A DNA stretch of 50,115 nt, counting the filler, from Candidatus Zhuqueibacterota bacterium (GTDB lineage: Bacteria > BS750m-G25): NCBI GenBank assembly GCA_016783505.1. It is 4 parts of 4 records of this genome, joined end to end, with 100 filler letters (N's around TTAATTAATTAA, not from the genome) between each part and the next. Parts side by side here need not be neighbours in the genome. Positions count along the whole stretch, not along the records: positions 1 to 12,796 come from JADHWK010000064.1; 3 more parts are not named here. The stretch is one strand, 5' to 3'. Positions within the stretch are counted from its first letter, which is position 1. Each line of letters opens with the position of its first letter. A program made the position numbers and the translations under genes. A model generated the notes under the pieces. The model was not told where the DNA came from, ran no database searches, and was given only the letters and a program-made list of their open reading frames with translations. Of this stretch, positions 4,143 to 38,110 are shown in pieces.

Positions 4143-5807
4143 TTACTCAACCAGTTCCCCTTTAAAAATCTCCATAATGTCCCCGATGATGGGCTCTTTC
4201 TGTTTTAAGCCTTCCAGCCATTTCTTTTTATCATCCCCCATCCTCGATTTGGCGGCGGGGCTTTTTACCATCTCCCCTACCACAAACTCAACTGACCATC
4301 TCTCGCCTAAGACCTTTTCCACCGCCCCAGCAATGAGGTCCCGTTCCTTCCTCAGTCGACCGATCTGAAATCCATTCCCCTGGGAAAGGGTAACCGTTAG
4401 TTTGCCTTCCTTTAAGGCAGTGGGCTCCCCCAGGACAAGAAAGACACCCAGGCTTTTTTTCCTTTCCCCCACTTCTGCAACCACCTTATTCCAAGAATCC
4501 TTAACTTTCTCTAATTTTTCCTGATCGTTCGCCCCGATAGAAGGGACCACAACAGCGACCGCCTGTTCCTCCCCCCTTTTAAGCAAACCTTCGGGAGAAG
4601 AAGCTTTTTCTCTTATCTTTTTTTTCGGGGATAAATCCTCTTTCACGCCCATGGAACAGGGCTGATCCTCCCCTGTTTTGAGCCCGACCAAACGCTCGAT
4701 CACCCCTTCAATCTGGACGCTTTCTTCTAGCTTGATCATCTTCAGAAAGGCCAGTTCGAAGGCCAGCCTCCAGTGGGGGTTTCGCCGCAGCCCCACTTCG
4801 GCGTCGGCGACGATCTTAATCAGCCGTAGCAGATCGTTCTCCTGATAAGAGGAACCTTCCTTCAGGTATCTATCTTTGTTCTCCGGGGTTGCTTCCACCA
4901 ACTCGGCGTTTCCCAGGGCTCGGGTCAAAAGCAGGTTGCGGAAATGCTCGCCCAGGCCGATCAAAAATTCCTGGGGGTCGTATCCCTGCCGGACGACCCC
5001 ATCAATCAGGGAGAGACACCCCCCCATATCCCTGGCCCTTATCCGATCGGAAACCTGAAAGAAAAGGTCCTGGGGAATAATCCCCAGCGTGTTGACTACG
5101 TCCTCTAAGCTCACCTTGTTTCCCCCGAAGGATACCATTTGATCCAGCAGTGACTGGGCGTCACGCAGGCTACCGTCGGCCTTGCGGGCCATGATCCGCA
5201 AACATTCATCGTCAACCTCTATCTGCTCCTGGGCGGCGATCTGTCGCAAGTTCTCGATCATGTCATCAATGGAAATGCGGTGAAAGTCAAACCTCTGGCA
5301 GCGGGAGAGGATGGTGGCCGGCACCCGATGGGGCTCGGTGGTAGCGAAGATGAAAACGGTGTGCCCCGGGGGTTCCTCCAGGGTCTTGAGCAGGGCGTTG
5401 AAGGCCTCCTTGGTGAGCATATGCACTTCGTCAATGATGTAAATTTTATACCGCCCCCCTACCGGCGCATACTTGATGTTCTCCCTCAGGTTGCGCACCT
5501 CATCGATCCCTCGGTTGGAAGCCCCATCAATCTCCAACACATCCAGGCTCCGGCCCTCGGTTATCTCTTTGCATCGGGTGCACTGGTTGCACGGTTCCGG
5601 AGTCACCCCCTGGGCACAGTTCAAGGCCTTGGCCAGGATGCGAGCGGTGGTGGTCTTCCCTATCCCCCGGGGCCCGGTGAAGATGTAAGCATGGGAGATG
5701 CGACTGGACTTAATGGCATTTTTAAGGGTCAGGGAGATATGTCCCTGCCCCACGATCTTTTCAAACACCTGAGGCCGCCACTTCCGGGCCATCACTAAAT
5801 AAGACAT
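4143..5807 (-). CDS. dnaX: DNA polymerase III subunit gamma/tau
   Basis: ARKWRPQ, Walker A GPRGIGKT, IIDEVHML, SRC motif, zinc cysteines. Confidence 0.98.
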   Translation of the reverse strand: MSYLVMARKWRPQVFEKIVGQGHISLTLKNAIKSSRISHAYIFTGPRGIGKTTTARILAKALNCAQGVTPEPCNQCTRCKEITEGRSLDVLEIDGASNRGIDEVRNLRENIKYAPVGGRYKIYIIDEVHMLTKEAFNALLKTLEEPPGHTVFIFATTEPHRVPATILSRCQRFDFHRISIDDMIENLRQIAAQEQIEVDDECLRIMARKADGSLRDAQSLLDQMVSFGGNKVSLEDVVNTLGIIPQDLFFQVSDRIRARDMGGCLSLIDGVVRQGYDPQEFLIGLGEHFRNLLLTRALGNAELVEATPENKDRYLKEGSSYQENDLLRLIKIVADAEVGLRRNPHWRLAFELAFLKMIKLEESVQIEGVIERLVGLKTGEDQPCSMGVKEDLSPKKKIREKASSPEGLLKRGEEQAVAVVVPSIGANDQEKLEKVKDSWNKVVAEVGERKKSLGVFLVLGEPTALKEGKLTVTLSQGNGFQIGRLRKERDLIAGAVEKVLGERWSVEFVVGEMVKSPAAKSRMGDDKKKWLEGLKQKEPIIGDIMEIFKGELVE

Positions 5808-6039: not shown

Positions 6040-6101
6040 GTAATTTGGAATTTACTAACTTTAGTCCCGAACCTTCGGAAAAACAGGATGATGGTCAAAG
6101 G

Positions 6102-6377
6102 ACGGCTGTGCCCTACCTTCGTTCCTGTCTTACCCGACCTCCCCCACGATAGCCAGCTCCCGCCAAGCGTCCCCGGGGCAGCGGCCCAAAACGCCTACCG
6201 CTGCTACCTCCCGGTCCTGACGGGGTTTGGCGCTCCAGTCCGTCCCCGGGACTCGACGATCAACACCGCTTACCGGGAGGAACATCGGGGGACCCGGACC
6301 TCAGAGTAGGCCTTCGACCCTGCTATAGCGGATTGCAGGCTACAGGGCACCGCTAACTCCCCGTCTAGCACAGCCGT
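6102..6377 (-). ncRNA. ffs: Signal recognition particle RNA, long (Alu-containing) form
   Basis: Minus strand has the Alu domain GACGGGGAGTTAGCGGTGCCCTGTAGCCTGCAATCCGC and S-domain helix 8 CCCCGTCAGGACCGGGAGGTAGCAGC. Ends ACGGCTGTGC/GCACAGCCGT pair. Canonical position upstream of dnaX. Confidence 0.95.
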
Positions 6378-6452
6378 GGTGGAGCTGAGGGGATTTGAAC
6401 CCCTGACCTCTAGAGTGCGATTCTAGCGCTCTCCCATCTGAGCTACAGCCCC
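6377..6452 (-). tRNA. tRNA-Ala (anticodon CGC)
   Basis: GGGGCTGTAGCTCAGATGGGAGAGCGCTAGAATCGCACTCTAGAGGTCAGGGGTTCAAATCCCCTCAGCTCCACCA; G3:U70 pair; CCA encoded. Confidence 0.97.
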
Positions 6453-6523
6453 CGCGCGGTGTCTTTAAAACAAAGTTCGAACCTACCTGGTATAAAACAA
6501 TCTTTTAATAAATTCCTATTCTC

Positions 6524-6618
6524 GTATAATGTTCCCATCATAAAAGAAGTCCTGAGGGTAGCGAAGGATTTGGGTAAGTCCCGAAAAATCGGGGCGAACC
6601 TTTTATGCTGTGTTAGGC
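6524..6618 (-). repeat. attC-like site 3 (terminal, degenerate)
   Basis: Minus strand GCCTAAC-A-CAGCATAAAAG...CTTTTATGATG-GGAAC-ATTATAC. The conserved GTT reads ATT, and a CCCCGA-TTTT-TCGGGA palindrome sits in the loop. Confidence 0.75.
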
Positions 6619-6653
6619 GACAGTTTTGCGAGACGAATAACATCTTTTCAATT

Positions 6654-7670
6654 CTATTTTCTTTGACTCTCACTTTCTACACTTTTTACTTTCTCATTAT
6701 TTTTATGGGGTAGGTAGAATTCTCTTATTTCTTTGTCAAACTCAAGTGTATATTTCTCTTTATTGTAAAATAACGGAAAAGCATAAACTATCTGAGCCCT
6801 TGATGCATTGTTATTTTCCTCAAAAAATAAATATATCCCAACTGTCTGCATTTTTGTTCCGAGTGGTGCGATTGAGACCATAGAATCTTTGTATTTCTCA
6901 TCACGATACCATCTATTGAGCAAATCCTTTGTGCAAGCAGGATCCAGTGCTGAAACTTCTTCTACAACAGTATTAGGATGTTCCAAGATAGAACGGTTTG
7001 CTGAGCGTGATGGTAAATCAGCGCCGTGATAAGTAGGGGGATTGCCAATAACAGCTACTGTCAAATCGGGTTCAACATATTTCCAAATAGCATACGCCCG
7101 CTCACCCTCGTAACCAAGCAAAAGAATCAAGATATTTCTGTGAAGTTCTACACAGTCGAGATTGCCAAAATAAGGTAAATAAGTTATGTCTTTTATTCCC
7201 CAGGTTAAATTTTGTCTGACCATGTAGTATCCAGGAGTGTATAAAAGCCTTATCTTCGCATTCGGATAATTGGAACGCAGAAATCGAAGTAATAATAATA
7301 AATATTGTTTTGTAAAAGTTGAAATATCAACAGTAATTCGTTCTAATGAAGGATTTTTATGAGCAAGATCATGTAAGAATCGGGTAAATTTGGAAGAATC
7401 ATATTTATTGAAATACACAGGTTCTATTTCATGTGAAGGACTTTCTAAATAGGGTTTGAGTATTTCTTTTAATCTTAGTTGATGCTTATTTTTTAAGTTA
7501 TCTTCACCATAATACCTTACTAAAAGCATGTTGCGTGCCTTATATTCACTCTTTTTCAACCTAGCACTTACATTCAAACATCTTGGCTCAAAACTAACAC
7601 TCGCAATAAACAAATCGTCAGACTTTGAACTTTCGATGGGTCTAACTGTGCTTATCGGTATAACGCTCAT
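6654..7670 (-). CDS. Uncharacterised cassette protein, two Rossmann/CARF-like alpha-beta domains
   Basis: 338 aa with conserved-looking motifs SFEPRC, VDISTFTK, LGYEGER, IAPLGTK and QIVYAFP. Start overlaps the upstream stop (ATGA). AT-rich. Fold call is inference. Confidence 0.6.
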   Translation of the reverse strand: MSVIPISTVRPIESSKSDDLFIASVSFEPRCLNVSARLKKSEYKARNMLLVRYYGEDNLKNKHQLRLKEILKPYLESPSHEIEPVYFNKYDSSKFTRFLHDLAHKNPSLERITVDISTFTKQYLLLLLRFLRSNYPNAKIRLLYTPGYYMVRQNLTWGIKDITYLPYFGNLDCVELHRNILILLLGYEGERAYAIWKYVEPDLTVAVIGNPPTYHGADLPSRSANRSILEHPNTVVEEVSALDPACTKDLLNRWYRDEKYKDSMVSIAPLGTKMQTVGIYLFFEENNNASRAQIVYAFPLFYNKEKYTLEFDKEIREFYLPHKNNEKVKSVESESQRK

Positions 7671-8230
7671 TTTCTACTCCCTGATCTAAATTTAACCATA
7701 AAGTCTTCTAACGTATCCTCAATATTTTGTTCGTAAGTGTTTCTACGCCAAGCACAAGGGGAGGCGCTGTTCATTAATACAGGATTATCCCATAAATCAC
7801 CGTCATATGCATATATAACTGAAGACACATCTACAGCTTCAGATAATCCTAATTCTACCACATAATCTACCACTGCCTCTGTGCAATCAATAATCTTGAT
7901 AATGCAACTTTGTAGAGCAAAACACACTTGGCATGTCAAATCGTCCATTGGATAGTCCGACGAGGATATTTCAATTATATCATATTTATCTGATAGTAAA
8001 TTAATTAAAAAATCACATTGTTTCTTGTTTCTTGGTTGAAAAGCTATATATGCTTTCTCTATCCTTTGAGATATTTCGTTTTCATAATCGCAAGAAGATT
8101 TTTCTTTATCGAAAGGACATGACCAATGTTTTTTAAAAAAACTATAACCATGTTGGTGAATCGCATCCCTATACCATTCGTTAAAGGACATATTCTCAAA
8201 TTCAGGAGACGAAGGCTCCCACCTTTTCAC
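7667..8230 (-). CDS. C-terminal part of the frameshifted ATPase fusion (nucleoside deoxyribosyltransferase-like domains)
   Basis: This frame stays open upstream to the A10 run at 8369-8378, adding KRISTGVLFEIGLSLGYK. A second repeat reads IIDCTEAVVDYVVELGLSEA. Confidence 0.55.
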   Translation of the reverse strand: MKRWEPSSPEFENMSFNEWYRDAIHQHGYSFFKKHWSCPFDKEKSSCDYENEISQRIEKAYIAFQPRNKKQCDFLINLLSDKYDIIEISSSDYPMDDLTCQVCFALQSCIIKIIDCTEAVVDYVVELGLSEAVDVSSVIYAYDGDLWDNPVLMNSASPCAWRRNTYEQNIEDTLEDFMVKFRSGSRK

Positions 8231-8312
8231 ATCCCAATCTTTGAGGAGCTTAGGTAAACTTTTCTTTTCAAATTCTTCATAGCGGCAATCATTATAGAGA
8301 AAAAATGGACTT

Positions 8313-10304
8313 TTATAACCTAATGAAAGACCTATTTCGAAAAGAACGCCTGTAGAGATGCGTTTCTCTTTTTTTTTTCTGTTTACCTCTGCCTATTTCA
8401 TACTCAATAGGAGTTATATCATGTGTAGTGTAGATAGCTTTCTGGATAATCTTTGGTATATCAATAACAAAACGATGAAGGTCTCGTTTCCATAAATCTC
8501 GTGCTGTTATACATATGTCTTGTTCAACCAATCCAAGCAACCGGGGTCGATCTTTCATATCTTCTTTATGTATATCATTAACTGTACCTTTTAACAAATT
8601 ATTTCTTTCAATAACTTTTTGATCCTTCTTTATTGAAATCGAAATAAAAACAGGATGCTCTGGAAAGATTTTTTTCTGTCCATACTGTGAATCTGCATCT
8701 GGTTGATCGTTTATAGGAGAAAGCATATATTTAATAATTTTATCATTCATCAAAGGAAACTCTCCTTTATTTATCCAGCTAATGCCAAATCGTGGAGCAA
8801 ACAAAGGATTCAGCATACCATGTTCTGGAATATAATCCTTATTAGTATTTATGCTTATTAATTCCTCAGGACTGCATAAAAGAAACCGATTCAAAAAGCC
8901 TTTTCTTAATATTTTTTTAGCTGCCTCACTAATATTAAGAGGTATAGAAAATCTTGAACCTTCAAACGAATATGCTTCTATTCCTTTTTTTTCACAATCT
9001 TTGCCAAAGGAGAGAATAAATGATCTCACCTCACGGAATTCCTCCTCTGTCTCCACATTGACATCTTTATTAAAAGTTAGTGTTGCCAGAGACACAAAAG
9101 CATCAGCTTGTGATTTAGCCGAAATAAAACTAACCTCTTTCGCCTGCTTTTTACTCCGATTGATTTCATTGTCAATCGCTTTTTCACATAGGTTCAAAAA
9201 GGTCAGGATATTTCCTCCAGAAAGTTTAACTAACCTATCGAATCCATAATACAATTTTTGTCTCATATTTCGACTTGTGCCTTTTTCAAAAGTATGAAGT
9301 CGTCTAAGATTTTCACCAGGACTATTACCCTTGTCTATAATATGCTCTATTTTTTGTGGAAATTTTTCAGAAAACACTTCAGCCATATCTATTTCATCTT
9401 TTCCCTGAGGTGATAGTATCTTAATTGTAATTTTTCGAAGAAGTCTTTCATATTGAATATCATAAGGGTCATGGTCTAAAGATAAAATTCCTAAGTCTCT
9501 TGTAAGGTCAATTTTTCTACCCGAAACATCTGAACCAAAAGACTCTGGGAGATATCTTGCGGCGAATTTAACACATAGAGTCTCTTTTAAACTGTGATCT
9601 AAAAAAATATTTAAAACCTTACCTAATCCTTTCCAGTAGTCATATTTATCTACTAAGAGGCATAATCTCTGCTTTCCAATTTTGGTTAATAACTCATCAT
9701 TCATCCGTTCTATCGTAGAAATAAACATGTCCGAGTTAAGGACTCTCATATTTAATTGCTCAGAAAAATCTCTGATTAATCTATTATTTATGATGTTATT
9801 TCTAATTATACTTATTACTTTCTTAAGCCTTTCAATTAGACTATTTACATTAATATTTTCTATATTTAACATATATTCCTCATTGATAATATGAGGGAGA
9901 ATTTCTAACATTTTATAGTCATCATTTAAGAGATTATCCTTTAATTGTATAAGAAGTTCTAAAGCCGTTTTTACACTGAAAAAATGTTCAAAAGTGGCAA
10001 AGTCACTGTAGTCTTGGTATAATCGCACAAGATGTTTCAATTCGGGATTTTTAAAGCCTATATAAACTCCATAGAAAGACAAGTTTTCTAATCTATTTCT
10101 CTTTAATTGAACAGATAAAGAAAGTGCTTTTAAAACAGCAGACTTTCCGCTCCCTGTAGAGCCAATCAAAATACAGTGCCCTGGCTGTAAATATTTTTCA
10201 TAGTCTGGAGGCTCTGCAAATAATGAGTAAATTTCATTAAAATCAATATGTTCAGCGTTTTTCTCTCTCCTAAAAGGATTATCAATCAACTTAAATTTGA
10301 CCAT
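8313..10304 (-). CDS. P-loop ATPase (STAND / ORC-CDC6-like), N-terminal part of a frameshifted ~878-aa fusion
   Basis: N-terminal NPF motif, Walker A ILIGSTGSGKS, Walker B LCLLVDKYD, helical-domain motif LSGGNI. The last ~18 aa after the A10 run look out of frame. Confidence 0.7.
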   Translation of the reverse strand: MVKFKLIDNPFRREKNAEHIDFNEIYSLFAEPPDYEKYLQPGHCILIGSTGSGKSAVLKALSLSVQLKRNRLENLSFYGVYIGFKNPELKHLVRLYQDYSDFATFEHFFSVKTALELLIQLKDNLLNDDYKMLEILPHIINEEYMLNIENINVNSLIERLKKVISIIRNNIINNRLIRDFSEQLNMRVLNSDMFISTIERMNDELLTKIGKQRLCLLVDKYDYWKGLGKVLNIFLDHSLKETLCVKFAARYLPESFGSDVSGRKIDLTRDLGILSLDHDPYDIQYERLLRKITIKILSPQGKDEIDMAEVFSEKFPQKIEHIIDKGNSPGENLRRLHTFEKGTSRNMRQKLYYGFDRLVKLSGGNILTFLNLCEKAIDNEINRSKKQAKEVSFISAKSQADAFVSLATLTFNKDVNVETEEEFREVRSFILSFGKDCEKKGIEAYSFEGSRFSIPLNISEAAKKILRKGFLNRFLLCSPEELISINTNKDYIPEHGMLNPLFAPRFGISWINKGEFPLMNDKIIKYMLSPINDQPDADSQYGQKKIFPEHPVFISISIKKDQKVIERNNLLKGTVNDIHKEDMKDRPRLLGLVEQDICITARDLWKRDLHRFVIDIPKIIQKAIYTTHDITPIEYEIGRGKQKKKRETHLYRRSFRNRSFIRL

Positions 10305-10371
10305 TTCCTATCACCTATTGTTTTTGACTCTTTAATCAATTTTTGCTGGTGCAAAAGTCTCGCAAAATGTC

Positions 10372-10442
10372 GCCTAACGGTACCAGCATATACGACGTTT
10401 TGTGATAGCAAAATGTCCCGAAGCGTATATGCTGTGTTATCT
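10372..10442 (-). repeat. attC-like site 2
   Basis: Minus strand AGATAAC-A-CAGCATATACG...CGTATATGCTG-GTACC-GTTAGGC, with 11-bp perfect arms. Confidence 0.85.
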
Positions 10443-10458
10443 GCCGTTATAATAAATA

Positions 10459-11118
10459 TCAGTTGAATAAAGACCAAATAACACTTGCTAACAAAGAGGA
10501 TAGAATACCAGCTATAAAACCTATTACTATTTTCTTATTTTTATACCACCAAGTAGAAATTATAATTGCTTCCTTAATTTCACCTGCAATATTCTTCGCA
10601 TTCTCTTTGAACGCTTTATCATATGCTTCATTAATGGGCAAACTTTCGTCTTTTTCTTCAGGATCAGGTTTCTTCATTATTTTGGTTGCTTTGGTTTTAA
10701 GAATGTGAATTGCATCATCAAGTGTTCCTTTACGTGTGAAAAATAAATATGGAATAGATTTAAAATTTTGACCAATGACATATGCTAGCGTAATTCCGCC
10801 ATTAGATGATTGATTAAGCTTGGCAAGAACTGTTCGAAATTTTGTTTGCGCTTTTAGATATAATTTTCTTTCAACGTGTAATTTTTGTAATTGCTCCTCA
10901 GTTGGCCGAGAATCCATCGGATAGTATAAATCTAATACAAAAATGTCAGGCCTTTTTCTTCCCTGCTTTTTTAAATCATCTAATGCCTCAGGATAAGTTG
11001 TTCCAGCGCCAATGATAAAACCATTCTCAAGTTTATCCTTGTCAAGGTTATTCTTGAAGCGCTTAATTTCATCTTGGTCGTCATCAATAAAGCAAATTGC
11101 ATATTCTTTTTGATACAT
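10459..11118 (-). CDS. Cassette protein: receiver (REC)-like domain with C-terminal transmembrane helix
   Basis: ICFIDDD, FVLDLYYP, FFTRKG and KKP receiver-like motifs; hydrophobic tail IVIGFIAGILSSLLASVIW. Confidence 0.65.
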   Translation of the reverse strand: MYQKEYAICFIDDDQDEIKRFKNNLDKDKLENGFIIGAGTTYPEALDDLKKQGRKRPDIFVLDLYYPMDSRPTEEQLQKLHVERKLYLKAQTKFRTVLAKLNQSSNGGITLAYVIGQNFKSIPYLFFTRKGTLDDAIHILKTKATKIMKKPDPEEKDESLPINEAYDKAFKENAKNIAGEIKEAIIISTWWYKNKKIVIGFIAGILSSLLASVIWSLFN

Positions 11119-11156
11119 TTAATCACCCATTCGTAGAGTTCGTATTAGGTAATGGC

Positions 11157-11294
11157 AGATAACGGTTGGCCGGTATACGAAGTGCGTACCTTAACGAAAT
11201 CTAAGTTAATAAATATGGTTGGGTTTTCAGTGTCTGTCAAGTATGTTTGAGAAGTAGTGGAGAAGCAAGCATTTTGTATACCGGCTTGTTGTGT
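11157..11294 (-). repeat. attC-like site 1
   Basis: Minus strand ACACAAC-AA-GCCGGTATAC...GTATACCGGC-CAACC-GTTATCT; begins a few bases after the stop of 11299..11802. Confidence 0.85.
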
Positions 11295-11298
11295 GCCG

Positions 11299-11802
11299 TT
11301 AATTACCTCTAAAACCAAATTTATGTAATTTTTCAAATTCTCCATTCTTATTTTTCTCTATAGATCTGGCTAAAAATTCTTTTGAACGTTGAAACTGTTT
11401 ATTGAATATTACCATGAATTCGCTACTATCAAGATCTTTTTCTTCAATACTATTTTTTTCAAGGTAAACCCTAATTGTAGTGTGTAATTGTAAATAGAAT
11501 TGGTCAATTAGCGATTCTTGATTAGGTTTCCATGAGATTTTCCACTTTTTGTGATGAGTTTGGTAGAATAGTAACTCTTCTGCAGTAATAATTGATGAAA
11601 GAAGACCTGATACTTTGTCATTCCTCCGCGGTGGCTTGCTCAGGTTAACCGGGTCTAAGTTATTATTACATTCTTTTGCTTTATCTGCTAGCTGACTATT
11701 AAGAAGACTTACTCTTTGATATCTTAATGCTCTAACTGCAACAAATAAAGAGATCATAGCAACAATAAGCGCGAAAATTGATGTTATTAAGCTGTAATTC
11801 AT
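11299..11802 (-). CDS. Cassette hypothetical protein with N-terminal TM helix
   Basis: 167-aa ORF filling cassette 1; AAAGGA RBS-like sequence upstream; hydrophobic N-terminus. Confidence 0.65.
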   Translation of the reverse strand: MNYSLITSIFALIVAMISLFVAVRALRYQRVSLLNSQLADKAKECNNNLDPVNLSKPPRRNDKVSGLLSSIITAEELLFYQTHHKKWKISWKPNQESLIDQFYLQLHTTIRVYLEKNSIEEKDLDSSEFMVIFNKQFQRSKEFLARSIEKNKNGEFEKLHKFGFRGN

Positions 11803-11900: not shown

Positions 11901-12341
11901 TTAAGATTTTCCTCCTCTCTTACGAATGCTCAAACTATCCAGCGGGCTCCTAATTCTTCCAATGCTCTGTTTGCTAACATGGGTATATATTTCGGTTGTC
12001 TTACTACTCTTATGCCCCATCCCGAAATTTCGGGACTGAATATACCGGAGGTCAGTCCCGCTTTCTAATAGGTGTGTCGCAAAACTATGTCTAAGACTGT
12101 GTACCGAAACCTGTTTTTGAGTTCCTGCTATCCGGCATGCTTTTGTGAAAATCTTCTCAACCGTTCGCGATGTTATATGTTTGTCCTTGTTCTGTCCTGG
12201 AAACAACCACTTCTTTGGTCTGTATTCCTTCCAGTATCCCCTTAGAATACCCAATGATCTCTCGGAAAGAATGGTATATCTATCCTTCCTCCCTTTAGTA
12301 TCCCTAATGTGAATAAACATCCTTTTGCTGTCAATATGTTC
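11901..12341 (-). pseudogene. 5'-truncated tyrosine recombinase (integron-integrase-like)
   Basis: [21 protein letters not shown]...[37 protein letters not shown]. Box I Arg and the N-terminal domain are absent. Canonical ELL is replaced by SRNFGM. Confidence 0.85.
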
Positions 12342-12554: not shown

Positions 12555-12791
12555 TCATCCATGAGAATTAATTTCGTACAACTCAGCAGTAAACTTGCCT
12601 GATGGCTTGACTCTTCCATTTAAGATATTCTCTACAATTTTTGCTGATGACAAAGGCATTGATTCTTGCCCACACTCTGGACATACATACATAACCAAGT
12701 CCGAAATAACAATAGGCTCGCCGTTACGAAGGAATATCTTTTCTTCTTTTCTTTCCTCCATTGGGAATGGACAGCCATTTGGACACTGCAT
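12555..12791 (-). CDS. YgiT/MqsA-type zinc-finger protein
   Basis: MQCPNGC...VISDLVMYVCPECGQE pattern, 78 aa; any partner gene would lie beyond the contig end. Confidence 0.7.
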   Translation of the reverse strand: MQCPNGCPFPMEERKEEKIFLRNGEPIVISDLVMYVCPECGQESMPLSSAKIVENILNGRVKPSGKFTAELYEINSHG

Positions 12792-12796
12792 AATAA

Positions 12797-12896
12797 NNNN
12801 NNNNNNNNNNNNNNNNNNNNNNNNNNNNNNNNNNNNNNNNTTAATTAATTAANNNNNNNNNNNNNNNNNNNNNNNNNNNNNNNNNNNNNNNNNNNN
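12797..12896. other. Assembly gap / artificial contig linker
   Basis: N-run with embedded TTAATTAATTAA (stop codons in all six frames). Confidence 0.98.
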
Positions 12897-21286: not shown

Positions 21287-21322
21287 AACCCGAGCCTTGA
21301 TCGGTCCTGGTTTTTTTTTTTT
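21287..21322 (+). terminator. Probable intrinsic terminator after the pilus operon
   Basis: Imperfect GC hairpin followed by a long T run (21311-21322). Confidence 0.4.
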
Positions 21323-25657: not shown

Positions 25658-25757
25658 NNNNNNNNNNNNNNNNNNNNNNNNNNNNNNNNNNNNNNNNNNN
25701 NTTAATTAATTAANNNNNNNNNNNNNNNNNNNNNNNNNNNNNNNNNNNNNNNNNNNN
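25658..25757. other. Assembly gap / artificial contig linker
   Basis: N-run with TTAATTAATTAA. Confidence 0.98.
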
Positions 25758-38010: not shown

Positions 38011-38110
38011 NNNNNNNNNNNNNNNNNNNNNNNNNNNNNNNNNNNNNNNNNNNNTTAATTAATTAANNNNNNNNNNNNNNNNNNNNNNNNNNNNNNNNNN
38101 NNNNNNNNNN
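38011..38110. other. Assembly gap / artificial contig linker
   Basis: N-run with TTAATTAATTAA. Confidence 0.98.

Follow-up and report, generated by a model that had tools for sequence, protein, structure and literature searches.

A tandem-CARF protein and a frameshifted ORC/CDC6-like ATPase with NDT/TIR-fold units: a candidate CRISPR-independent conflict module in Candidatus Zhuqueibacterota

The present analysis concerns two coupled genes, here termed gene 1 and gene 2, in a window of 50,115 nucleotides (the whole stretch of DNA that was analysed) from Candidatus Zhuqueibacterota bacterium BS750m-G25 (assembly GCA_016783505.1). Gene 1 combines an ORC/CDC6-like AAA+ ATPase with two C-terminal units displaying a fold of the nucleoside 2-deoxyribosyltransferase (NDT)/TIR type, and is interrupted by a frameshift at a run of ten adenines, while gene 2 codes for a protein predicted to be a stand-alone tandem CARF. 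The reading that we favour is that the pair is probably a module of a rare, CRISPR-independent, CARF-regulated ATPase-effector conflict system, likely directed against phages, with the defence role being inferred from comparisons across the family. The features on which the argument turns are as follows.

10304-7667, minus strand: gene 1, broken at the A10 run
7670-6654, minus strand: gene 2, 338 aa, with its start overlapping the gene 1 stop
8379-10304, minus strand: N-terminal part of gene 1 in frame 0, with the ATPase, a helical/SGGN region and then the first ~100 residues of NDT-like unit 1
8369-8378, minus strand: A10 homopolymer (T10 on the plus strand), after which frame 0 stops at 8313-8315
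7667-8368, minus strand: C-terminal part of gene 1 in the +1 frame, with the rest of unit 1, a Cys-rich linker and unit 2 (233 codons and a stop)
8336-8338, minus strand: codon of the conserved Glu of unit 1, within the C-terminal part
~7670-8062, minus strand: NDT/TIR-like unit 2, within the C-terminal part

The open reading frames (ORFs) and motifs that an earlier note on this DNA had named in both genes were all found at the places it gave. The stop of gene 1 and the start of gene 2 share 4 nt (7670-7667), which indicates that the two genes form an operon. On the minus strand a 663-aa ORF (10304-8313) carries the motifs GSTGSGKS, LLVDKYD and SGGN, and the +1 frame stays open from 8368 to 7667, a length of 233 codons, and carries STGVLFEIGLSLG and YVVELGLSEA. 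Dropping one A from the homopolymer joins 645 and 233 residues into a product of 878 aa, the length earlier estimated for the corrected gene. Residues 1-633 of the N-terminal part show 65% identity to residues 1-632 of an intact homologue, P0001 (871 aa), and the C-terminal part shows 67% identity to its residues 644-871; the break thus lies within an 11-residue Lys-rich linker.

The P-loop ATPase recognised in the earlier note can be placed in the ORC/CDC6-like AAA+ family PF24389, which is matched by residues 14-318 with 149.7 bits (E = 1.7e-43), far above the gathering score of 27 bits, and by P0001 with 146.4 bits. A further match of gene 1, to the Sll1717 family of NCBIfam (3.9e-10), is under the cut-off of that model. 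The Walker A motif GSTGSGKS corresponds to residues 48-55 and the Walker B Asp to D219; in a family alignment of 38 sequences G48, G53 and K54 show almost no variation, and D219 shows none. The clade to which this ATPase belongs also includes the STAND NTPases. HMMER searches over 1.84 billion representatives recovered 115 relatives of gene 1 at E <=1e-3, 44 at 1e-10 and 14 at 1e-30, and the C-terminal region is common to 40 of the 116 sequences searched for it (the 115 relatives and a further homologue, P0002). The family is rare by this count and is found almost only in uncultured bacteria and archaea, such that screens in model organisms would miss it.

Gene 2 is well supported, by sequence and structural modelling, as a stand-alone tandem CARF of the CARF6 family and a predicted ligand sensor, as its motifs had earlier suggested. 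Twelve CARF6 models of PADLOC match it, the best being PDLC01911 (E = 1.5e-35), in which residues 12-305 align with positions 16-306 of the 325 in the model; Pfam yields only a weak match to Card1-CARF. The structure predicted from an alignment of 42 homologues has a predicted local distance difference test score (pLDDT) of 93.2 and consists of two Rossmann-like halves. In the VIA structure search against 48,161 chains, ranks 1-16 were occupied entirely by CARF proteins (Z 8.8-13.6), with SAVED next. The best match, Can1 (6sce; Z 13.6, root-mean-square deviation (rmsd) 3.3 Å, 11% identity), aligns over 228 residues spanning both halves, suggesting for gene 2 a pseudo-dimeric CARF architecture able to accommodate a single ligand. 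All the CARF fold matches are CRISPR-associated effectors, ring nucleases or regulators, or are uncharacterised (VC1899, Cdn1). Gene 2 carries the motifs DISTFTK and APLGTK: the first half displays D115-I-S-T-F-T-K121, which fits the CARF signature after strand 4, [DN]x[ST]xxx[RK], and the second half displays a variant, P269-L-G-T-K273. D115, T120, K273 and G278 do not vary across the 42 homologues, at least 90% of which retain K121. An alternative relationship to KCC C-terminal domains, returned by Foldseek, was rejected, given its rmsd of 17-18 Å, as against ~4 Å for CARF proteins, and the VIA ranking. A search for longer, fused CARF forms, including ATPase-CARF fusions, found none, which is weak evidence, and no plasmid or phage copy of gene 2 was recovered by tblastn.

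The C-terminal region of gene 1 had been described in the earlier note as two NDT-like units. The model of P0001 residues 541-871 (pLDDT 91.6; predicted template modelling score 0.91) indeed contains two flavodoxin-like units. For unit 1 the nearest folds are NDT (7o62, Z 11.7), MilB (Z 11.7) and the TIR domain of SfSTING (Z 11.8), with the NDT and MilB matches as a whole ranging over Z 11.2-11.7, and for unit 2 they are the MAL TIR domain (Z 12.0) and RCL (Z 10.3), with receiver domains lower; other matches of the C-terminus include ThsB (6lhy, Z 9.7) and TIR-STING proteins (Z 11.1-11.8). In an alignment of the C-termini of 28 relatives, unit 1 shows the pattern Y-x-x-x-D-[IV]-T ... G-V-x-[FY]-E-x-G, with both Glu (E651 of P0001) and Gly present in 28/28. 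In unit 2 the Gly is likewise found in all 28, but the Glu (E810 of P0001) in just 13. Thus, both units have the NDT/TIR fold, but only the first retains the full motif throughout; by sequence the NDT-like label is supported for unit 1, and unit 2 has the look of a degenerate partner. Both NDT and Rcl function as dimers, which suggests that the tandem may be an intramolecular pseudo-dimer with one competent site.

A profile built from 29 C-termini and compared with PDB gave 21 matches, 18 of them chains of the NDT superfamily and the best being Rcl/DNPH1 (E = 0.003), which align on the stretch that holds the catalytic Glu of that superfamily. The NDT family PF05014 (gathering score 28.8 bits) is matched above threshold by two relatives (L009, 36.8 bits; L010, 32.2 bits) and just under it by two more (L013 and L014, 28.6 bits); P0001 has no match to it at E 0.01. 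Compact local matches of the C-terminal model in Foldseek comprise DNPH1, the SARM1 TIR domain and NDT, and a protein atlas offered, as leads only, scores of 0.86-0.90 to clusters named for NDT and TIR. A GT-B glycosyltransferase reading was also considered, as the top Foldseek matches of the region are two-domain glycosyltransferases (9iqz, E = 1.1e-4), but their rmsd of 17-19 Å and template modelling score of ~0.26 set it aside. A separate peculiarity of this region is a set of four cysteines (722, 731, 784 and 787 of P0001), arranged as C-x8-C in the linker and C-x2-C at the opening of unit 2 (~7920-8130 in the C-terminal part of gene 1), which are kept in 15-19 of the 28 relatives and jointly lost in one subgroup; these residues may form a zinc site that holds the units to each other.

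The linkage of the two genes is a strongly conserved feature of the family. A scan of genome contigs with the gene 2 sequence by itself returned nothing; the gene 2 alignment then gave seven loci in species genomes, from Armatimonadetes, Dehalococcoidia, Terriglobia, Clostridia, two Methanoregula and a Methanobacteriota archaeon, and in 7/7 the gene immediately upstream, in the same orientation, belongs to PF24389. A metagenome scan yielded 179 relatives of gene 2, of which the best 80 were kept. Among the 66 loci with at least 1 kb upstream, an ATPase homologue is directly upstream of the CARF gene in 64 (the exceptions being L012 and L049), with distances from the ATPase end to the CARF start of -115 to +48 nt, confirming the co-occurrence that the earlier note had made a test of its proposal. 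Complete upstream ORFs match PF24389 in 41 of 44 cases, the other three being pieces of split genes. Evidence for the reverse pairing is confined to contigs of equal size (P0001 and P0005, 10,760 bp; P0002 and P0004, 3,907 bp). Family members are scattered patchily over bacteria and archaea.

Around this constant core the effector varies. When 71 upstream ORFs were searched with a purpose-built hidden Markov model, 23 proved to contain the NDT-like pair. Other ATPases instead display an N-terminal TIR domain (four genome loci and 11/44 metagenome ORFs), a C-terminal Rossmann domain resembling AdoHcyase_NAD (11/44; the genome locus L002 shows weaker matches to this and related NAD-binding families) or an N-terminal region of ~200 residues with no family assignment (five loci). 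The TIR, NDT-like and NAD-binding-like effectors share one chemical theme, and the swapping of effectors on a constant ATPase-CARF core is a pattern commonly displayed by defence systems.

The interchange of TIR and NDT-like domains also bears on a different arrangement, which we consider quite improbable, wherein the TIR/NDT-fold domain would generate a signal, as ThsB does in Thoeris, and the tandem CARF would be the receptor that feeds back on the ATPase as executor, acting for instance on DNA. This would accommodate the replacement of the NDT-like pair by TIR in many relatives, and in every characterised case among the fold matches CARF is the receptor of a nucleotide signal. However, no separate killing domain is present, and the AdoHcyase_NAD-like effector fits better with the consumption or binding of NAD-like molecules. 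The predicted contact of the CARF protein with the ATPase core, described below, is the same under this arrangement and under the CARF-regulated effector system that we favour.

A third gene is found in much of the family. An N6/N4 DNA methylase (PF01555) follows the CARF gene in five of the seven genome loci (L002-L006) and in 42/59 metagenome loci. It occurs in the TIR-type, the AdoHcyase_NAD-type and the unassigned N-terminus branches, where it makes a three-gene system, and was absent from all 11 NDT-type loci that have an ORF downstream, as well as from the window, where a tRNA comes next. Thus, of the two-gene organisation earlier proposed, the constancy of the pair is upheld, but most relatives have three genes with the methylase, which the NDT-type version lacks. 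The methylases are of 410-460 aa, examples being L037:4831-6117 and L045:5503-6792. In three NDT-type loci the gene directly after the CARF gene is thyX, for flavin-dependent thymidylate synthase (PF02511; L022:2302-2928, L033:4050-4673 and L035:6164-6787), and in L028 and L029 PurE occupies this place; these neighbours may point to a common site of insertion or to a connection with nucleotide metabolism.

The methylase opens the way for a system linked to DNA modification, akin to restriction-modification or BREX, in which the ATPase would read DNA, the methylase would mark self, and the CARF protein would sense methylated or damage-derived nucleotides, with the NDT-like branch having dropped the methylase and attacking modified nucleotides of the phage type, in the way of DNPH1 and MilB. 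The frequency of PF01555 after the CARF gene speaks for it, as do the affinities of unit 1, whose nearest match by sequence is DNPH1/Rcl and among whose top fold matches is MilB. Immune sensing of methylome-derived m6-dAMP, reported in a 2026 preprint (10.64898/2026.01.15.699771), counts on the same side. Against this, the methylase is missing from the 11 NDT-type loci with a downstream ORF and from beside the gene pair studied here, and we regard such a system as unlikely.

A complex of the two proteins is predicted with consistency. Three runs with ATPase residues 1-560 and the CARF protein scored 0.84, 0.84 and 0.85, as against 0.00 for the best of three controls, a mark reached by 58/80 solved complexes and 2/110 mismatched pairs, with the use of custom alignments making this calibration only rough. 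The runs share at least 83% of contacts, with pLDDT of the partner at least 84, and the model supports a predicted binding of the CARF protein to the conserved ATPase core. In it, ATPase residues 85-99, 165-174 and 409-424 meet CARF residues 157-174 and 190-202. Such binding would also be expected of a toxin-antitoxin-like addiction pair stabilising its cassette, with an ATPase-NDT toxin, the CARF protein as stoichiometric inhibitor and no anti-phage role: the tight gene overlap, the complex model (0.84 versus 0.00 for the best control), the cassette-like setting and the repeatedly broken copies would all be compatible with it. Nevertheless, a large regulated ATPase, swapped effectors, an associated methylase and defence neighbours are typical of immune systems, making the addiction pair very improbable. 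As to those neighbours, 15 of 28 related loci have at least one neighbour of a PADLOC family within 4.5 kb (E <=1e-10), a figure for which there is no baseline; examples include type I restriction-modification, NsnA, ZorD/DpdE-like, PD-Lambda-2, DrmD-like, HmaC and IetA. Among the 150 neighbouring ORFs of the 28 loci, no Cas10, CD-NTase or other cyclase or signal maker was found.

The constant core, the swapped effectors, the predicted contact and the mobile, patchy distribution together fit a regulated system of the abortive-infection type. In the mechanism that we propose, the ORC/CDC6-like AAA+ ATPase would serve as scaffold and switch. The tandem-CARF protein, a separate subunit and a pseudo-dimer comparable to Can1 or SAVED, would be bound to it. 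This subunit would sense a nucleotide-derived ligand with a source outside the operon, and the ligand, together with the ATP state, would switch on the fused effector, although control might conceivably run in the other direction. The effector would be an intramolecular pair of NDT/TIR-fold units, of which only the first has the catalytic Glu of the NDT/DNPH1 type; this unit may cleave the N-glycosidic bond of a nucleotide or NAD-like substrate, and the outcome would be depletion of the substrate or destruction of phage-specific nucleotides. In the genome under study a full-length gene 1 product would arise only via transcriptional slippage or slipped-strand reversion, failing which the gene would be a recent pseudogene.

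A more elaborate version of these ideas, which we hold to be doubtful, is an immunity free of both CRISPR and cyclases in which a tandem CARF docked on the ATPase would sense a nucleotide that no dedicated synthase makes, for instance a mononucleotide derived from the methylome or from phage, and license interchangeable N-glycosidase-type effectors (TIR or an NDT-like pseudo-dimer), with the A-tract acting as a phase switch. Modified mononucleotides as candidate ligands would explain the methylase found in most relatives; in the NDT-like branch nucleotides would be destroyed much as DNPH1 or MilB do, and the system would be costly.

Several points weigh against the favoured reading of a CARF-regulated, probably anti-phage module. 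The case for it is made from sequences and models. By fold TIR and NDT tie, such that the predicted chemistry may be that of an NADase or of a nucleotide N-glycosidase, and the profile matches to PDB are marginal (E 0.003-0.06). The C-terminal part encoded in the window itself scores 15.4 bits on PF05014, under the 28.8 bits needed, because the frameshift cuts the domain. Gene 1 is frameshifted in all assemblies seen, and this copy may do nothing. The counts of relatives are of loci and not of lineages, and include near-duplicates (L013/L014, L023/L024, L026/L027 and L003/L069). As most relatives carry the methylase, the logic of the family may centre on DNA rather than small molecules. The complex score expresses the confidence of a model and is not a measurement. 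Lastly, with no signal maker nearby, the CARF domains could be non-sensing.

The state of gene 1 requires separate consideration. The A10 run is, by comparison of sequences, one A longer than the reading frame of intact homologues, and P0001 and P0002 read KKEK across the site. Logan contigs from four runs all keep A10 (two samples from studies of 2020 and 2024, one of the samples being possibly that from which the stretch itself came), with 0 differences and 0 gaps over 8000-8800 and word depths of 6-49. The occurrence of the same A10 in four run assemblies indicates that the frameshift is in the DNA consensus and not peculiar to one assembly. Hence, the break that the earlier note placed at 8369-8378 is there, but is a genuine +1A shift of an A9 tract in the DNA and not an error of reads that needs correcting away.

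The C-terminal part is no more diverged than the N-terminal part (67% versus 65%) and is free of stops over its 233 codons, which suggests that decay of gene 1 has not set in. The intact and equally conserved downstream half argues that the frameshift is either recent or rescued through slippage at the A-tract. Transcriptional slippage and phase variation classically occur at tracts of at least nine adenines. Ribosomal frameshifting was set aside, as a simple -1 shift gives the wrong frame, with the frame being restored only by +1, by -2 or by loss of one A, whether from the DNA or from the transcript; we know of no +1 ribosomal shift site of the A10 type. The best reading is that gene 1 is here either inactivated or dependent on slippage.

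Inactivation leads to the explanation that we rate as distinctly possible, if short of an even chance, namely that the module is dead in this genome through a recent slipped-strand +1A event in a decaying integron-type cassette. The A10 consensus in four run assemblies from two studies favours this, as does the lack of any 100% protein match on record for the 663-aa ORF, unlike gene 2, for which such a record is present. Relatives are broken too, with the ATPase split into two ORFs in L025, L029 and L038 and the CARF ORF truncated in L033 (L033:3025-4047), although these copies could reflect either frequent inactivation of a costly system or errors of metagenome assembly. On the other side, the 233 codons after the break are undamaged and match the part before it in conservation, slippage at a tract of this length would yield some full-length product, and minority alleles such as A9 are invisible in the contigs, which conceal them. 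A dead module here is compatible with a defence role of the family elsewhere.

Comparisons with known systems show both shared elements and differences. Gene 2 resembles the CARF6 family of PADLOC-DB v2.0.0 ('CARF6--CARF_CARF_CARF') in being a stand-alone multi-CARF protein devoid of a fused effector, and nothing sets it apart from that family. It shares two CARF domains in one chain with Can1, the cA4-activated nuclease of type III CRISPR systems, but Can1 has nuclease domains and gene 2 none, and no CRISPR link was seen among the 28 related loci. With the NDT superfamily (NDT, Rcl/DNPH1 and MilB) unit 1 shares the catalytic-Glu motif and the fold; in gene 1, however, the domain is duplicated, with a degenerate second copy, and fused to a 540-residue ATPase. 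The Avs-type STAND/NLR-like ATPases are likewise switch ATPases fused to interchangeable effectors, TIR included, but no TPR- or WD40-like family is among the Pfam matches of gene 1, and its constant partner is a separate tandem CARF. TIR-ORC/CDC6 fusions are mentioned in PMC10853773.

Thoeris (ThsB TIR and ThsA SLOG) and the TIR-SAVED and TIR-STING forms of CBASS also combine a TIR/NDT-fold enzyme with a Rossmann-like sensor. Here, in contrast, sensor and enzyme are on different proteins with the ATPase bridging them, and there is no recognisable signal synthase. The ATPases of BREX, MADS and Hma (BrxC and HmaC) are ORC/CDC6-like proteins of the same clade, and most relatives of the gene pair also add a methylase; the pair differs in being found without PglZ, BrxA/B or a helicase, and its ATPase is not BrxC/DUF499-like by PADLOC. 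The PADLOC matches of gene 1 are weak, at the level of the P-loop, and reach residues 40-191 at most (mad8, 1.2e-5; mad3, 4e-4; PtuA, 1e-3), with PADLOC-DB v2.0.0 giving 0 matches to the C-terminal part.

The earlier impression that this combination is not a named system is thus borne out for the ATPase-effector, which no PADLOC system matches, but has to be qualified for the CARF partner, which falls in the catalogued CARF6 family. The CARF6 models and the curated Pfam family PF24389 are already known, and an operon of CARF6 with its partners may already be described where CARF6 was defined. In the full-text literature searched, a combination of an ORC/CDC6-like ATPase with a tandem CARF, with or without a methylase, was not described, and the name 'CARF6' appeared in no relevant paper. 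The accessible parts of PMC12839542, 10.64898/2026.10.19.760177, PMC7159879, PMC10853773, PMC4012209 and PMC9704534 do not describe the same operon.

To our knowledge, characterised CARF sensors act downstream of Cas10. The present family is one in which stand-alone tandem CARFs are locked to an ATPase-effector, with 179 relatives in one metagenome scan and a methylase often present. If functional, it would raise the questions of what an orphan CARF binds, of how an ATPase of the ORC/CDC6 type translates a small-molecule signal into nucleotide cleavage by TIR or NDT-type domains, and of whether NDT/DNPH1-like enzymes act as immune effectors.

The genomic setting of the pair is that of the first contig only. 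The window comprises four contigs, with N/TTAATTAATTAA linkers between them (12797-12896, 25658-25757 and 38011-38110); hence, neighbourhood across the linkers is not real, and the gene pair sits on the contig at 1-12796. From ~6453 to the end of this contig the GC content is 0.32-0.35, as against ~0.5 elsewhere, and every gene, the pair included, is on the minus strand; the low-GC stretch stops at 12796 because the contig ends there. The other features of this contig are the following.

4143-5807, minus strand: dnaX, with relatives of its product in many phyla at 35-51% identity and no species representative above 51%
6106-6373, minus strand: signal recognition particle RNA
6377-6452, minus strand: tRNA-Ala(cgc), which comes after gene 2
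6516-6620, minus strand: weaker attC-like element downstream of gene 2, with the coding strand starting GCCTAAC
10364-10444, minus strand: attC-like imperfect hairpin upstream of gene 1, with the coding strand ending GTTAGGC
10459-11118, minus strand: cassette-like 219-aa ORF with a hydrophobic C-terminus and a weak receiver-domain match (PF00072, 5e-6, under the cut-off)
11152-11300: attC-like hairpin between the 219-aa and 167-aa ORFs (z -4.0), with AAC/GTT-type ends
11299-11802, minus strand: cassette-like 167-aa ORF with a hydrophobic N-terminus, belonging to no family
11901-12320, minus strand: 139-aa C-terminal fragment of a tyrosine recombinase (PF00589, 3.9e-25)
12555-12791, minus strand: 78-aa ORF next to the contig terminus, containing two pairs of Cys (CxxxC ... 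CxxC)

Sites of the attC type are imperfect palindromes with RYYYAAC ... GTTRRRY ends. The hairpin upstream of gene 1 has a folding energy of -14.8 kcal/mol (z -4.19), with 0/200 shuffles folding as well. The downstream element is poorer (z -1.48; 16/200 shuffles fold as well) and has a degenerate 3' box; the two share the word TAACACAGCATA as a direct repeat (D10). Thus, the single 3.85-kb cassette of the earlier note has a good upstream hairpin, but its downstream fold is weak and that boundary is not proven. An integron-type cassette array is nevertheless plausible from the sequence. No intact integron integrase is present on the contig, with the recombinase fragment scoring 93.9 bits on TIGR02249 as against a cut-off of 265 bits. 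The fragment lacks its N-terminal half and is XerA-, IntI- and XerD-like, each match being far under its cut-off. Its box II region is broken by a small palindrome resembling AGTCCCGAAATTTCGGGACT, copies of which are found at 6060-6078 and 6577-6593.

By its Cys pairs the 78-aa ORF resembles a zinc ribbon, with no Pfam match at E 1e-4. A scan for promoters and terminators gave 24 promoter-like sites, as against 16.3 ± 4.1 in shuffles, and was uninformative. The sole other A/T homopolymer of at least nine in the window is a T12 run at 21311-21322, on a different contig.

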